Sequence record: PZ386951.1
Length of the DNA: 64,000 nt
Source of the DNA: a phage
Direction: 5' to 3' (one strand)
The position numbers and the translations under genes are program-made. Each line of letters starts with the position of its first letter. Position 1 is the first letter of the stretch. Positions 10,903-24,511 of the stretch are shown here, piece by piece. The notes under the pieces were generated by a model. That model was not told the DNA's origin, ran no database searches, and was given only the letters and a program-made list of their open reading frames with translations.

Positions 10903-11274
10903 TCACTTAAATTTAATGGCTTGAAGAAGACTAATAACTCTCAAGCGGCTTCTTTCATCTTTAACTGTAAAGGAAAGAGGGTCACCAGATTTCATAGTGA
11001 TAGTGCATTCAAAATCAAAATCTTCAGGAACTTCTTCGAAGAAGTCAAATTCTTCATCATAAATTAGAACATTACTTTGAAAACTGTGAAGAATTTTTCC
11101 ATCATTTCCAGATGCTGTACTAATCATTGTAACATTATGGCCTTTCATATCTTCAACGATAAATTCGCTTGTAGATATTACAGCATTAATAGAACCATTC
11201 CTATAAATAGCAGACATTAGATATTTCTTTTCTTCACCTTCGCGAATACGGTATTTCTTACCAATTTTAAACAT
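10903..11274 (-). CDS. hypothetical protein (about 123 aa)
   Basis: Minus ORF; ATG at 11272-11274 two codons inside the track GTG start. Confidence 0.55.
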   Translation of the reverse strand: MFKIGKKYRIREGEEKKYLMSAIYRNGSINAVISTSEFIVEDMKGHNVTMISTASGNDGKILHSFQSNVLIYDEEFDFFEEVPEDFDFECTITMKSGDPLSFTVKDERSRLRVISLLQAIKFK

Positions 11275-11276
11275 AA

Positions 11277-11453
11277 TCACCCTTTAAGTAAATCGTAAAA
11301 ACCACCATTCACATGCTTAGGAGCAGAAACTAACCGAATAGCAATCCGATGACAATCAGGACATACATCAGTATCCCTTTCAGAAATTTTCTTGATTTTT
11401 TCGTATTCTTTTGCACAGTCTTTGGATTGACATTTATAATCATAAAGAGGCAT
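11277..11453 (-). CDS. small zinc-ribbon protein (57 aa)
   Basis: MPLYDYKCQSKDCAKEYEKIKKISERDTDVCPDCHRIAIRL... contains CxxxxC...CxxC; below the ORF track size cut-off. Confidence 0.45.
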   Translation of the reverse strand: MPLYDYKCQSKDCAKEYEKIKKISERDTDVCPDCHRIAIRLVSAPKHVNGGFYDLLKG

Positions 11454-15022: not shown

Positions 15023-16342
15023 TCATACATAAAATACATCATAACGACCACGGGTAACACCAACATAAAGAAGTTGTTGAGCTAATTCAGCATCTGCATA
15101 ATGAATACAAGGCGTATAAATGAAAGCACGGTCTACAGACATACCCTGAGCTTTATGGAATGTTGATGCAGGAAGTGCTTTCACTTTACTAAACTGTGAT
15201 TTAGCATCCCAAAAATCACTCCATGGAGCTTTTCCGCCTTTATTCCAGTTCTTATAAGTTTCTGCCGTTTTACCTAAAAATAGGTTAAACTTATACAGCT
15301 CTTCATCAGATGAAATTATTTTAATCTTTTCACGATAATATTCATCATCGCCGTAAGTTTCTACTGTTAAATCCCAATGACGAATTAAGTATTCTCCAGA
15401 AACACCACGAGCTTTAACAAAGGTTGATGTATACTCTGCTTCTATAATACGAACTAATTGTCCGTTATTAAAAATAATTTCTGACACAGGCTTTCCATCA
15501 ATTTTATATGTTTTAATTAATGGTTCCTGCATTACAATAATTTCACCGACAATAAAATCTTTATCAGTTTCAAAAATCTTTTTACGAATAATGCTATTTA
15601 ACTTGTCAACAGATTTATTCGTAAATGCCATTACACGATTTTCAAACAAATCATCTAGTGATTTGACGATTGAAAAATAATTTACCATAAAATCGCGTAA
15701 AGCGGTATCACCAGTAAATCCACGTACTCCATGACCGTCAACAACTTTATCATAAATCCACTTACCGTTGCGAACATCAGTAGCTACATCAATAATAGGA
15801 GCATTACTGCGTTTAACTTCAGTAAGTTCACATTGATAAAAATCTTTATGTGTAAAGAATGGACTGATATAAGCAGTATTTTCTCCTGGATCAACAGGTC
15901 TAATTTGCTTATTATCACCTATTCCAATTATTGTGCACCACGGTGGAATAGTTGAAAGCAAAATTTTGAAGAGCTTTCTATCATACATTGACCCTTCGTC
16001 GCAGATTAATACCCTGCATTTAGCTAAATCTGGTACTTCTTTTTGTTCAAAAAGAACGTTTTCTTCATATGTTACTGGGTTAATTTTAAGAATACTATGA
16101 ATAGTACTCGCTTCTTTCCCTGATAGTTTTGAAAGAATCTTTTTAGCTGCATGAGTAGGAGCTGCTAAAATAATACCAGTTTCACCCGTAGATATTAAAG
16201 CTTCAATGATGAACTTAGTAAGAGTAGTCTTACCGGTACCGGCAGGTCCATTAATAGTTACATGGTGTTTCTTTTCTTTAATAGCCTTCATAACGATGTT
16301 AAAGGCATTTTTCTGGCCTTCGGTCAAATCATCAAATGTCAT
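15023..16342 (-). CDS. dda: Dda DNA helicase (SF1B)
   Basis: 439-aa ORF, same length as T4 Dda; Walker A GPAGTGKT; start MTFDDLTEGQKNAFNIV. Confidence 0.92.
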   Translation of the reverse strand: MTFDDLTEGQKNAFNIVMKAIKEKKHHVTINGPAGTGKTTLTKFIIEALISTGETGIILAAPTHAAKKILSKLSGKEASTIHSILKINPVTYEENVLFEQKEVPDLAKCRVLICDEGSMYDRKLFKILLSTIPPWCTIIGIGDNKQIRPVDPGENTAYISPFFTHKDFYQCELTEVKRSNAPIIDVATDVRNGKWIYDKVVDGHGVRGFTGDTALRDFMVNYFSIVKSLDDLFENRVMAFTNKSVDKLNSIIRKKIFETDKDFIVGEIIVMQEPLIKTYKIDGKPVSEIIFNNGQLVRIIEAEYTSTFVKARGVSGEYLIRHWDLTVETYGDDEYYREKIKIISSDEELYKFNLFLGKTAETYKNWNKGGKAPWSDFWDAKSQFSKVKALPASTFHKAQGMSVDRAFIYTPCIHYADAELAQQLLYVGVTRGRYDVFYV

Positions 16343-16651: not shown

Positions 16652-17398
16652 TTATCCTCGGATAAGTTTAAAAATTGAACAATTTAGCGGGTATCCTCTT
16701 TTCAGTTTAAGTTTATCAATAAATGATAAGTTTTGAAACCGCTCTACACCTTGAATAATTTTATCACACATATCATATTGCATTTCTGCTTCTGACAACT
16801 TTTTCACAATTTTCCAATCCGAACCTTTAAGAAGAACGTTCAGTTTAACAACTTCAGCGCCTTCTGCTATACGAGAACCATCAATACGAGCTTTAAGTGC
16901 TACAATAGTTAATTTAATATCAGCGGTTTGTTTTGATTTAGAAAGCTGAGAAATGTGTTCAATTCGATTTTCACGCTTTTTCTGTATAGCTTTAATTTGA
17001 TTATAAGTCTTTTTGATTTTAGCCCATTTCTTTTCATCTAAATTTAGTTTATGAACTTTTTTCGCAGATGAACGACCAATTCGCAAAGCAAATAAATCAC
17101 GCTTTTCAATCAACTCTTCTAAAGTATAATCAGAACGAAATGTATTATACTTTTTCTTTACTGCAATAACATTCCCTTTAATGTATCCAACGTTATTATC
17201 AAAACGTTCTAATGATAATTTCTCTCCTTCAATACGATTATCAAAAGGTTCTCCCGAGTAAGCACAAACTTTTTGATCTAAAATGTTCTTAATGTAATTG
17301 AAGTCTAAGTTAAAATCTTTAGAACGTCTTTGTGCAGATGCCTGAGTGTGCTCTAAACGACGTTTAATTTTACGAATTTGATTATTAGACAGTTTCAT
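16652..17398 (-). CDS. srd: Srd-like protein (248 aa)
   Basis: Size and position (between dda and modA) match T4 srd; sequence identity not verified. Confidence 0.55.
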   Translation of the reverse strand: MKLSNNQIRKIKRRLEHTQASAQRRSKDFNLDFNYIKNILDQKVCAYSGEPFDNRIEGEKLSLERFDNNVGYIKGNVIAVKKKYNTFRSDYTLEELIEKRDLFALRIGRSSAKKVHKLNLDEKKWAKIKKTYNQIKAIQKKRENRIEHISQLSKSKQTADIKLTIVALKARIDGSRIAEGAEVVKLNVLLKGSDWKIVKKLSEAEMQYDMCDKIIQGVERFQNLSFIDKLKLKRGYPLNCSIFKLIRG

Positions 17399-17436
17399 AT
17401 TTTTCTCACATCTTACGGACGATTTAATACTTTATT

Positions 17437-17466
17437 ACTATAACATTTTTACCTTAACTTGTAAAC
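17437..17466 (-). promoter_or_regulatory. T4-type early promoter (weaker -10 TATAGT)
   Basis: ACTATA at 17437-17442 and GTAAAC at 17461-17466. Confidence 0.45.
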
Positions 17467-17523
17467 AACTTTATGTAAAAATGCTTTAAAACTTTCATGG
17501 TATAATGAATCTAAGTCCTTCCA

Positions 17524-18126
17524 TTATAGATTAAATCCTTCAAAATCAAGAGTATAGATAGTGTATGCTGAATACTTTTTGTACTCATATCTATCTGCAA
17601 TTCTAAATACACTTCCAGCTGGTATCATTACTTCTTGTTCATCTGAAACTAATTCCATATTACGATAACGATGGCTATCCGGAAACTTAAAGTTTGGATT
17701 GTATTCTTTACAGCGTAGAGCTTTTATAGCATACTCCTGGAAATTGAATACCATAGGAGCTTTGAATTCAAAAATAACTTGTGTGTTATACTCTAAACCG
17801 GAAGCAAAATGTAGAGCTATATTTTTATCATATGAAGCTGATACGACTTTATCAAATGTAATAATATCAATTCCTTGATTTAATACTTGCTTAGTCTCAG
17901 CTGGAACACCTCTCCAAAGAGGTTTATCGTTTGGGACCAAACGAGATTTGATTATTTCATTTAACCAAGTATGGTCATCTGGCTTATTAGTAATACAATG
18001 AATTAAAAGTTCAATTTCAGATAAATTAAACCCTTCAGAAAGTAATTCTTCACGAATAGAAGCACGCACCGATGCATCCATTGATTTTATTTTAAAATCT
18101 TTTAGTTGCATTACTGAGTATTTCAT
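17524..18126 (-). CDS. modA: ModA ADP-ribosyltransferase
   Basis: 200-aa ORF, same length as T4 ModA, adjacent and coupled to the 207-aa ModB-sized ORF. Confidence 0.7.
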   Translation of the reverse strand: MKYSVMQLKDFKIKSMDASVRASIREELLSEGFNLSEIELLIHCITNKPDDHTWLNEIIKSRLVPNDKPLWRGVPAETKQVLNQGIDIITFDKVVSASYDKNIALHFASGLEYNTQVIFEFKAPMVFNFQEYAIKALRCKEYNPNFKFPDSHRYRNMELVSDEQEVMIPAGSVFRIADRYEYKKYSAYTIYTLDFEGFNL

Positions 18127-18746
18127 TCAACTACCTCAATATCATAAACTTTAAATGTTCCAAACGAATCGTGTAATTTTTCTTTTGAAATAGAAGTTAT
18201 TCTATACTTTCCAATTGGAATCATCCATTCTTGTTCACGCACAATCATCATTAAGTTATCAGTACGCTCTGAATCTAGCCCATCAGTATCTTCATACGTG
18301 TACTTGAACTCAGTATTAGGAGAAGAAAGTATAATATCGCTGATATGGTCAGAATAATTAAAAGCTTTATCAGTTTTTAAGCGAAATATTATTTCAGTGA
18401 AATACTCAACATAAGAAAAACCACATGCTGTGAGTAAACTAGTAGTAAATGAATCTACCCTGTTCGTTGAAAACACTTCTCCAACTTGTAAATCTTTAAT
18501 AAGTTCTTCTGTTGATTTTGATATACCACGATATAACTGATAAGGCGATTTAGTTAAATGCTTTTTAACGATTTTATTCAACTGCTGATGAAGAGCTTCA
18601 TTCTTTTTGGCTTCCATACATTGCCAAAGAATTGACTGTTCAAAGTCAGTAAATTTTTCACAGACCTTTTTATACATATCATATTGAAAATCAACACTTT
18701 CAGCTTTTATAGATAACTGTTCAACATCTGCAAGATTAATAATCAT
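18123..18746 (-). CDS. modB: ModB ADP-ribosyltransferase
   Basis: 207-aa ORF, same length as T4 ModB; 4-nt overlap with modA. Confidence 0.7.
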   Translation of the reverse strand: MIINLADVEQLSIKAESVDFQYDMYKKVCEKFTDFEQSILWQCMEAKKNEALHQQLNKIVKKHLTKSPYQLYRGISKSTEELIKDLQVGEVFSTNRVDSFTTSLLTACGFSYVEYFTEIIFRLKTDKAFNYSDHISDIILSSPNTEFKYTYEDTDGLDSERTDNLMMIVREQEWMIPIGKYRITSISKEKLHDSFGTFKVYDIEVVE

Positions 18747-18813
18747 GATAGCCTCCGTATACTTCAGAAGCTATCATATCATCGTTAGAAAGGAAAGTAA
18801 ACAACTTTTTGAA

Positions 18814-18996
18814 TTATTTTGCCCAGGGAGCCCAGGGCGGAGGGTCAAGATGGTATGAAGCTAGTTCTTCTAGAAGAGCATCTGGGGCTTCAATTCCATA
18901 ATTCTGTAATACTATACGGTACTCTTTCTTATAATCACTAGAATCATTCTGGATATTCGTAGAATGATTATCTTCTAACATCTCAAATAAATCCAT
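18814..18996 (-). CDS. hypothetical protein (60 aa)
   Basis: Minus ORF with ATG start. Confidence 0.5.
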   Translation of the reverse strand: MDLFEMLEDNHSTNIQNDSSDYKKEYRIVLQNYGIEAPDALLEELASYHLDPPPWAPWAK

Positions 18997-21276: not shown

Positions 21277-21795
21277 TTAATAACCTCGGTCTTGACGTGC
21301 GAAATTTTCAGCATTTTTCAGATAATAAAGTTTAAAGATTTCTTCTGCTGTAAGACCAAGACCCTGGAACATATTCAGAACGAAATGAAGAATATCAATC
21401 ATTTCAAACTTAATTTCCAGTTGGTCTTGTGGAGACAAATCAGTAATCAGAGTTTCACGACGTTCACCATGCTGCGACTTCCAAGGTTTCCATACAGCAG
21501 ATGCGTCTTTTTCACCATTACTCATACCACCAAGAGAAGTCAGAAGTTCACGGAATTCATCATCAATATAATCTTTCTGATTACGCAGCCAATCAACAAC
21601 TTCACCTGCAGTAGCCAAATCATCAGGATGACGGTTATATTCAGGTTTATCTTTAGCTAAACGAATCTGCAGAGATTTCTGCATGTCAAGCATTACCTGC
21701 AGCGGGTCTTTTTCATCACCGAGAATATCCCAATATTCATTTTGAGCTTTATCAGCGCCTTCAATCAGTTGTGAACATTCGTTAAAGTAAGCCAT
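21277..21795 (-). CDS. 56: dCTP pyrophosphatase gp56
   Basis: About 172 aa from MAYFNEC (AAAGGAAAA RBS); MazG-like sequence, position next to soc as in T-even phages. Confidence 0.8.
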   Translation of the reverse strand: MAYFNECSQLIEGADKAQNEYWDILGDEKDPLQVMLDMQKSLQIRLAKDKPEYNRHPDDLATAGEVVDWLRNQKDYIDDEFRELLTSLGGMSNGEKDASAVWKPWKSQHGERRETLITDLSPQDQLEIKFEMIDILHFVLNMFQGLGLTAEEIFKLYYLKNAENFARQDRGY

Positions 21796-21855
21796 TATTT
21801 TTCCTTTCAATTCATCAATAAGTTAAATAATTATATCATTTGAGTATGTAAGCAA

Positions 21856-23195
<1,340 letters not shown>

Positions 23196-23220
23196 TATAT
23201 CATCCTCAGCAATTTATTTT

Positions 23221-23250
23221 ATAATACCATAACAAGCTGAGAAAGTAAAC
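23221..23250 (-). promoter_or_regulatory. T4-type early promoter for the 186-aa ORF / dam operon
   Basis: ATAATACCA at 23221-23229, GTAAAC at 23245-23250. Confidence 0.6.
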
Positions 23251-23285
23251 AAATTTATGATAAATATTAATTTAAAGGAGGACAT

Positions 23286-23486
23286 ATGGTACAAAAATTA
23301 ATGGCACTTGTTAATGCCATAAAAGGTAATAAGAAACGTATAGCTTTTACTATTTCTGCTATGATAGGAATTTTACTTTGGAATTTTGTTTTATCGCCAG
23401 TTGCTATTGCTCATGGCGTTAGTATTCCAGTAGTTACTCTTGATACATTCGTAGATTTAGCATTTGCTTTAGTTGGGTTAATTTAA
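23286..23486 (+). CDS. small membrane protein (66 aa), plus strand
   Basis: Strong SD AAAGGAGG 5 nt before ATG; two hydrophobic segments; sits in a 290-bp gap between minus-strand genes. Confidence 0.4.
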   Translation: MVQKLMALVNAIKGNKKRIAFTISAMIGILLWNFVLSPVAIAHGVSIPVVTLDTFVDLAFALVGLI

Positions 23487-24511
23487 ATCTTAGCATATTT
23501 AGATAGCCGCATTTTAGCCATTAACCCCTGGGCAATATTATTTTTCATATATTCCATAATTTGTTCAGGGGTTGCACCTTCCTTTCTAATCATATCATTA
23601 ACATCTTTTGATTTCCAGGGAGATTTATCCCAAAACATAACCCTTTCTCCTGCATCAACTAATTTAGTCATTCGCTTAATAGTGTCAGGATGACGAGGTT
23701 CATTATCTAAAACCCACACACGTCTATCTTTAAATGGAACAACTTCTAGGTCTAATTGACCACCCGTAATAGCTATACCATTTTCAATAAAAAGTGAATC
23801 TATAGGTCCTTCTAGAACATATACATCACCATCTTTAACTCGTTCGACTCCATAGATTTTTGTTGCCTCAGGATAAGCTTTGATGGTGATATATTTTTGA
23901 GGAGCATCTTTCTTTAATGCACGCCCTTGAAAAGACTCAGCTTTTCCATTAGCATTATAAATTGGAATAACAAGACGAGGCTCAGAAATTTCCATTTTAT
24001 ATGTTCCCGGTGCTATGCTATTAACCAATTTAGGCCATTCGGTTGTAAACCAAAGATATTTCCATTTATCCTTTGGAATACAACGAGCTTTTACATATTT
24101 TATAATTGGATGGTCTTCCGCCAGTTTATCTAATCTAACACATGACGGAAGAGATTTAATTATTTTCTTCTCAAGTTGTTTAGGAAGTTCTTTAGGTTTT
24201 TCTACTGGACGACTTTTACCTTTTTCTTTTCTTATTTCAAAGATATACTCACGATATAAATCAGGTTCAAACTCCTTTAAATATATTCCGATTGGTGCAT
24301 GATAGTTACAGTTATAACAATGAATATTTCCTTCATTATTATCACCATAATACCATCCACGGGCTTTATTTTGGTCGGTTTTTGAATCTCCACACACTGG
24401 GCATCTAAACCGTAATTTAAAAGTTGAACTATTATTTACTTGTGTGAATTTAGGTAAATGAGCTAATGCACGGTATGCAAACTCATTATCAATCCAAGGT
24501 ATTGATGACAT
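23483..24511 (-). CDS. 61: DNA primase gp61
   Basis: 342-aa ORF, same length as T4 gp61; N-terminal zinc ribbon CPVCGDS...CYNC. Confidence 0.9.
   Translation of the reverse strand: MSSIPWIDNEFAYRALAHLPKFTQVNNSSTFKLRFRCPVCGDSKTDQNKARGWYYGDNNEGNIHCYNCNYHAPIGIYLKEFEPDLYREYIFEIRKEKGKSRPVEKPKELPKQLEKKIIKSLPSCVRLDKLAEDHPIIKYVKARCIPKDKWKYLWFTTEWPKLVNSIAPGTYKMEISEPRLVIPIYNANGKAESFQGRALKKDAPQKYITIKAYPEATKIYGVERVKDGDVYVLEGPIDSLFIENGIAITGGQLDLEVVPFKDRRVWVLDNEPRHPDTIKRMTKLVDAGERVMFWDKSPWKSKDVNDMIRKEGATPEQIMEYMKNNIAQGLMAKMRLSKYAKI

Follow-up and report, generated by a model that had tools for sequence, protein, structure and literature searches.

The small ORF at positions 23286-23486 (plus strand; ATG start, 66 aa) is best explained as a genuine membrane-protein gene found throughout the Tevenvirinae, forming a lone clockwise late-strand unit within a counter-clockwise early region, a reading to which we give a probability of roughly 75%. 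It was intact in ~700 records from at least six Tevenvirinae lineages and, judging from its upstream sequence, is probably switched on late in infection. The window, that is the whole 64 kb stretch of DNA that was analysed, is a segment of a Tequatrovirus (T4-like) genome, and the 1.2-kb stretch around the small ORF displayed 99.0% identity to Escherichia phage EC128, with 504 phage records matching. We regard the small ORF as an ordinary, already catalogued, uncharacterised and probably late membrane-protein gene. On present evidence it adds to the conserved hypothetical genes and does not represent a novel type of system. What gives it modest interest is that the T4 reference annotation lacks it, that it is the lone unit in late-strand orientation within the early region, and that it is stable beside a variable segment.

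The small ORF occupies a gap of 287 nt (23196-23482) between a nuclease-like ORF of 186 aa located upstream of dam (22635-23195, minus strand) and gene 61, coding for the DNA primase (23483-24511, minus strand), which is convergent with the small ORF and was its constant neighbour in all lineages. The stop codons of the small ORF and gene 61 share 4 nt, a TTAA palindrome at 23483-23486. The genes dam (21856-22635) and 56, the latter coding for the dCTPase (21277-21810), also lie on the minus strand. A reading made from the sequence alone had placed the 66-aa ORF between the 186-aa ORF and gene 61 in a gap of 290 bp, and had called it the only credible plus-strand gene in the window. This was upheld, as among the plus-strand ORFs of at least 40 aa the small ORF was the only one essentially clear of the long minus-strand ORFs (2% overlap) and the only one with a Shine-Dalgarno sequence. 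The Shine-Dalgarno sequence, AAAGGAGG (23274-23281, plus strand), is strong, as had been claimed, although the spacer to the ATG is 4 nt (ACAT) and not 5 nt. No paralogue of the small ORF was detected in the window by an HMM search of all six-frame ORFs, and an Rfam scan of 23100-23600 returned nothing meaningful.

T4 is the reference organism of this phage group, yet its curated records omit the small ORF. No feature is annotated between dam (16846-17625) and gene 61 (17935-18963) in NC_000866 and AF158101, where an intact 66-aa orthologue is located at 17738-17938 (plus strand). An intact orthologue at 15343-15543 (plus strand) is also left unannotated in the RefSeq record of JS98 (NC_010105). 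The small ORF is called in a recent T4 assembly annotated with Pyrodigal and is listed as hypothetical in hundreds of newer phage records, and the exact T4 protein was found in a collection of 15 billion proteins in raw assemblies only, without an NCBI accession. The orthologue in RB69, RB69ORF029w (16061-16258, plus strand, convergent with gene 61), entered GenBank with the deposition of the RB69 genome. This ORF belongs to the same family (phrog_2024), is located at the same locus and shows no difference in kind from the ORF of the window. It was listed as a "novel ORF" and counted as having no T4 counterpart (Nolan et al., 2006, supplementary tables), a score that it received because the T4 reference leaves the orthologue unannotated. 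For the same reason, counts of reads, peptides or guide RNAs made gene by gene on T4 cannot see the small ORF. A literature search covering transcript, ribosome-profiling, proteomic and transcription-start evidence and the dam-61 intergenic region returned these tables only, with no expression or function data for the small ORF in any phage.

Conservation and selection of the small ORF

Conservation in related genomes had been proposed by the sequence-only reading as a check on the small ORF, and it was borne out. A tblastn search identified 698 phage records with the small ORF, in 686 of which the frame was open over almost its full length, with one match place per genome; identity was 80-100% in 503 of these records and below 60% in the other 195. 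With the most distant type (from Enterobacter phage Q7622) as the query, 606 records were identified, of which 152 were Klebsiella phages. The product matched phrog_2024 (E = 8.1e-31; residues 2-66 aligned to positions 1-65 of a 65-position profile), a PHROG family for a small protein of T4-like phages to which PHROG assigns no function. In every annotated example that was opened the small ORF was on the strand opposite to that of its neighbours and converged on the primase gene. These examples comprised JB75, fPS-65, Lutter and T4 (Tequatrovirus), WFL6982 and RB69 (Mosigvirus), VR26 and EAWsc9 (Gaprivervirus), Q7622 (Kanagawavirus), JS98 (Dhakavirus) and the Klebsiella phage Roth34.

The small ORF is under purifying selection. 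The dN/dS ratio was 0.09-0.18 in Tequatrovirus, 0.16 in Mosigvirus and 0.35-0.5 in Gaprivervirus. Between genera, synonymous sites were saturated with ~50% amino-acid identity kept in the protein, and substitutions were ordered by codon position as 3 > 1 > 2 (chi-square p 3e-4 to 1e-6, between genera). Five residues (W32, N33, P38, G44 and P48) were invariant across both subtypes of the family. The conservation, the coding pattern of the substitutions and the five invariant residues together exclude a chance ORF or a purely RNA-level element.

The first type of the small ORF stands alone in Tequatrovirus and Mosigvirus, and the second type stands alone in Kanagawavirus, Dhakavirus and the Klebsiella phages. 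Gapriverviruses carry two paralogues in tandem, 8 nt apart, located at 1495-1692 and 1701-1901 in the VR26 locus (L006) and also present at two further loci (L014 and L016).

Probable late promoter and expected opposite-strand transcription

A late-promoter-like octamer, GATAAATA, is located at 23259-23266 (plus strand) upstream of the small ORF. The T4 late promoter consists of TATAAATA at -13 to -6 (PMC2988020). It requires no -35 element, and the octamer in the window is identical to this consensus at seven of eight positions, the sole deviation being a G at -13. Among 50 listed T4 late-promoter sites, 32 are perfect, 9 have an A at -13 and the rest mostly carry a single deviation, and single deviations, especially at -13, are documented in accepted T4 late promoters (PMC2988020). 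The T at -13 is also the least conserved position of the late promoter in relatives (PMC1524935). A list of RB69 late promoters compiled in 2006 with an HMM holds no site upstream of RB69ORF029w. The record of phage Lutter annotates the same octamer upstream of the small ORF as a promoter.

The upstream flanks of the different genera were too diverged for MAFFT to put in register, and NATAAATA was therefore located by pattern search. It started 23-30 nt before the ATG in 20 of 20 first-in-row orthologues, representing at least five unrelated upstream contexts; the second of the tandem Gaprivervirus paralogues was without a NATAAATA of its own. The octamer was GATAAATA in the window, T4 and most Tequatroviruses, AATAAATA in the dam-less Tequatroviruses, Mosigvirus and JS98, CATAAATA in Gaprivervirus, IMG/VR contig L019 and Klebsiella phage Roth34, and the exact consensus TATAAATA in Kanagawavirus. 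The core ATAAATA was invariant in all lineages examined, and a GGAG-type Shine-Dalgarno sequence before the small ORF was kept in all of them.

Six copies of ATAAATA were present on the two strands of the window compared to 41.9 +/- 6.7 expected from dinucleotide-preserving shuffles of the window, a ~7-fold depletion that points to selection keeping the early region free of stray late promoters. Two copies only were on the plus strand, one of them upstream of the small ORF. Given this depletion and the presence of just two plus-strand copies, an ATAAATA 20 nt before the sole plus-strand ORF is unlikely to be idle. The window's only exact plus-strand TATAAATA is located elsewhere, at 11202-11209 inside a minus-strand ORF (10903-11280), with neither a Shine-Dalgarno sequence nor an ORF downstream of it, and may be a late antisense promoter.

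The late gene soc is located in the same window. It has TATAAATA, 22 nt, AAGGAG and then the ATG, with TATAAATA 38 nt before the ATG. Both units have a late octamer and a small coding sequence, with a short leader and a strong Shine-Dalgarno sequence between them. They differ in that soc, a minus-strand gene, matches the consensus exactly, whereas the small ORF lies on the plus strand in convergent orientation to an early gene and its octamer has a G at -13. From the upstream sequence we infer gp55-dependent late transcription. After the onset of replication, gp55-RNA polymerase together with gp33 and gp45 would recognise GATAAATA and initiate near 23272, giving an mRNA with a leader of ~14 nt that would consist almost wholly of the strong Shine-Dalgarno sequence, and translation would then yield a 66-residue inner-membrane protein.

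Antisense transcription across the small ORF is expected from the gene layout, as gene 61 converges on it. A terminator-like hairpin followed by a T-run was identified on the minus strand at 23291-23320, inside codons 2-12 of the small ORF, with an 8-bp stem followed by TAATTTTTGT (-8.9 kcal/mol, z = -2.1); the same bases are thus coding on the plus strand and a candidate terminator on the minus strand. The hairpin is also present in T4, and it is annotated as a terminator in the record of fPS-65. It was absent in Mosigvirus, Gaprivervirus and Kanagawavirus and is confined to Tequatrovirus, which places it outside the conserved design of the locus, and a conserved bidirectional or early terminator inside the small ORF was rejected on this ground. 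The early gene 61 transcript may terminate at this hairpin and would in that case cover almost all of the small ORF in antisense. A dedicated small-RNA promoter for an antisense RNA was not found at the small ORF. On the plus strand, no intrinsic terminator was identified for more than 3.5 kb after the small ORF, and the late transcript would therefore continue antisense into gene 61 unless stopped by Rho. T4 late transcripts run in either direction (PMC2988020), and an antisense effect on gene 61 is a possible side effect of the predicted late transcript.

Predicted product and its possible role

The product has the sequence MVQKLMALVNAIKGNKKR-IAFTISAMIGILLWNFVLSPVAIA-HGVSIPVVT-LDTFVDLAFALVGLI, with the C-terminus ...DLAFALVGLI. 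Mean Kyte-Doolittle hydropathy was 2.0 at residues 19-41 and 2.0 at residues 45-66. All five basic residues (K4, K13, K16, K17, R18) fall within the first 18 positions, and D53 and D57 are the only acidic residues. An AlphaFold2 model built on an 8-sequence alignment (mean pLDDT 76) contains helices at residues 2-13, 16-42 and 52-63 and a loop at 43-51. A transmembrane segment at residues 21-41 has also been predicted in RB69ORF029w (Nolan et al., 2006). The sequence-only reading had described a small membrane protein with two hydrophobic helices; the first part of this description stands, and for the second the hydropathy and the model give one clear transmembrane helix and a shorter C-terminal helix. 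In the predicted product, a basic N-terminus is thus followed by one clear transmembrane helix and then by a shorter, hydrophobic but acidic C-terminal helix, the last of these being too short and too acidic for a confident second span in the predicted topology. A dual-start motif (M1...K4...M6, as in lambda S) was rejected, as other genera do not have the M6 of Tequatrovirus.

The positive-inside rule would place the basic amphipathic N-terminus in the cytoplasm, with residues ~19-42 spanning the membrane. The W32-N33...P38...G44...P48 motif and the helix at 52-63 would be located at the periplasmic face of the membrane or slightly outside it, or would form a re-entrant hairpin; in the model, the C-terminal helix may accordingly rest on the periplasmic leaflet or re-enter the membrane. 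The invariant W-N within the span and the invariant P, G and P after it point to a specific contact, made between helices or by the loop, and not to a generic anchor. Late in infection, the small protein would most likely act by bringing its helices into contact with those of a second membrane protein.

Searches of Pfam, NCBIfam and PDB sequences with ten family members returned no matches. A profile search of 1.84 billion cluster representatives recovered six proteins, all of the same narrow family, so no distant homologue lends the protein a function, and a BFVD fold search with the AlphaFold2 model recovered family members only. Since no homologue of known function was found, the cellular role of the small protein is a guess. 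Envelope, lysis-timing and superinfection-related functions are the candidate processes. Small late membrane proteins are a class from which regulators of lysis and exclusion have repeatedly emerged, and T4 Imm, the RI antiholin, Sp and Ac, all of them short and with a membrane segment that is N-terminal or the only one, work by contacting other components of the envelope. The small protein is likewise a short membrane protein, with no detectable homology to any of these four. Imm and Sp are early genes, unlike the small ORF with its late-type promoter. We hold a role in lysis or the envelope to be possible but on the doubtful side. A bolder version of the same reading, which we consider unlikely, would have the small ORF as an overlooked late gene of T4 and essentially all enterobacterial Tevenvirinae whose product is a missing player in one of the classic late events at the envelope, be it the timing or inhibition of lysis, late exclusion of superinfecting phage, resistance to lysis from without or escape from a host defence based at the membrane, and whose transcript also shuts down the primase mRNA by antisense pairing.

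Alternative explanations and the dam side of the locus

It is improbable that the small protein itself acts in lysis as a holin or in the manner of a pinholin. Class II holins and pinholins (e.g., phage 21 S68) are proteins of ~65-70 aa with one or two hydrophobic helices and late expression, and the small protein is like them in size, in its helices and hydrophobicity, and in its probable late expression. Two records also carry holin names ("Holin" for phage OE5505 in UniProt and "holin family protein" for EAWsc9); the remaining records name the protein hypothetical, with that of JB75 calling it a "putative membrane protein". However, no Pfam or NCBIfam holin model was matched by any of the ten family members, and every true holin in the BFVD fold search scored at E > 5 with a probability below 0.12, which leaves the two holin names, and the holin-like role suggested from the sequence alone, unsupported in both sequence and fold. 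The protein is small and has at least one predicted transmembrane domain, as holins do, but its C-terminus is hydrophobic where a holin has a charged hydrophilic tail, and its charged domain is N-terminal, where all the basic residues lie. The small ORF is not near lysis genes and does not belong to a lysis cassette, and T4 holin T is necessary for lysis, which also counts against a holin here. A type-I-toxin-like membrane peptide is quite improbable; in this reading the 3' end of the early gene 61 transcript would pair in antisense with the mRNA of the peptide and control it. Hok, TisB and Ldr are small hydrophobic peptides of type I toxin-antitoxin systems whose genes are overlapped by antisense transcription, and the small ORF resembles them as a hydrophobic peptide gene that the gene 61 transcript is expected to cross in antisense over most or all of its length before the hairpin (23320-23301). 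Unlike in these systems, the antisense RNA at the small ORF would be the tail of a protein-coding mRNA in a strictly lytic phage, for which an addiction module has no obvious use; moreover, the hairpin is limited to Tequatrovirus and the promoter motif is of the late type and not constitutive. The converse arrangement, in which a late antisense RNA that silences the gene 61 (primase) mRNA is the functional product and the ORF is secondary or incidental, is very unlikely. The unit does converge on gene 61 without a nearby plus-strand terminator, and T4 is known to have sites at which the one strand and the other are transcribed at different times (PMC2988020). The selection, however, is at the protein level, with a strong Shine-Dalgarno sequence, a frame intact in ~700 genomes and five invariant residues, so that an antisense effect could accompany the protein but cannot be the sole function.

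The two remaining explanations concern the ORF's surroundings. The sequence-only reading had linked the small ORF to the nuclease/methylase operon and pointed to a plus-strand TATAAT at 23219-23224 as a -10-like element; in such an account the small ORF would be an early sigma-70 gene, transcribed from the TATAAT at ~23220 and tied to the operon as the toxin or regulator of a restriction-modification-like cassette. In the window the small ORF is indeed divergent from a PD-(D/E)XK nuclease-like ORF translationally coupled to dam, and the TATAAT is present, although at 23220-23225. It lies, however, within the AT-rich -10 region of the sigma-70-like early promoter serving the 186-aa ORF/dam operon on the minus strand (23221-23249; TTTACT-17-TATTAT with an upstream TG), at the equivalent place of which the fPS-65 and JB75 records annotate a promoter. 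A sigma-70 promoter scan found no -35 partner for the plus-strand TATAAT, and T4 and other lineages with the small ORF lack the motif and have the late-promoter core conserved instead. The link to the operon did not survive comparison either, as the small ORF is kept in T4 without an intact 186-aa ORF and in a Tequatrovirus locus (L010) and other genera without dam. An early cassette gene is thus highly unlikely. That the small ORF is a chance, unexpressed ORF in the 3' untranslated or terminator region of gene 61 is hardly credible; the curated T4 and JS98 records leave it unannotated and a terminator-like hairpin of the opposite strand lies inside it, but the conservation, the coding substitutions and the conserved Shine-Dalgarno and promoter motifs speak against this. 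A genuine late membrane-protein gene is the reading that we retain.

Comparison of the loci supports the small ORF as a unit apart from its dam-side neighbours. As to INDEPENDENCE from the dam operon, T4, the dam-less Tequatroviruses and Mosigvirus all keep the small ORF. In T4 dam is present and the 186-aa ORF is reduced to its last ~27 codons with a frameshift; in the Tequatrovirus locus L010 both dam and the 186-aa ORF are missing. In Mosigvirus, Gaprivervirus, Dhakavirus, Kanagawavirus and the Klebsiella phages gene 56 is found directly on the dam side. The small ORF was kept in all of these, and its presence does not follow that of the nuclease and methylase genes. The stretch from gene 56 to the small ORF is variable, the stable unit is the small ORF with the end of gene 61, and the association of the small ORF with the nuclease/methylase operon is accidental. 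As the small ORF is kept in every lineage examined while dam and the nuclease-like ORF vary, it is probably useful to the phage.

Compared to the window, T4 has lost ~538 bp (window 22719-23260; 2205-2215 in the T4 locus, L004) between two TGAT microhomologies. The deletion ends exactly at the G of GATAAATA and so spares the promoter motif. The stop codon of the 186-aa ORF overlaps the dam ATG (TAATG), by which the 186-aa ORF is translationally coupled to dam. This ORF was found in ~146 records and contains an invariant D72...E85-x-K87 motif (AlphaFold2 pTM 0.78). Only weak matches to DpnII and BanI were obtained in Pfam, and the Foldseek matches in PDB were all PD-(D/E)XK nucleases, the best full-length match being the restriction enzyme MunI (TMq 0.60). 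On the predicted structure, the 186-aa ORF looks like a PD-(D/E)XK nuclease-like, restriction-enzyme-like gene coupled to Dam in a lytic phage.
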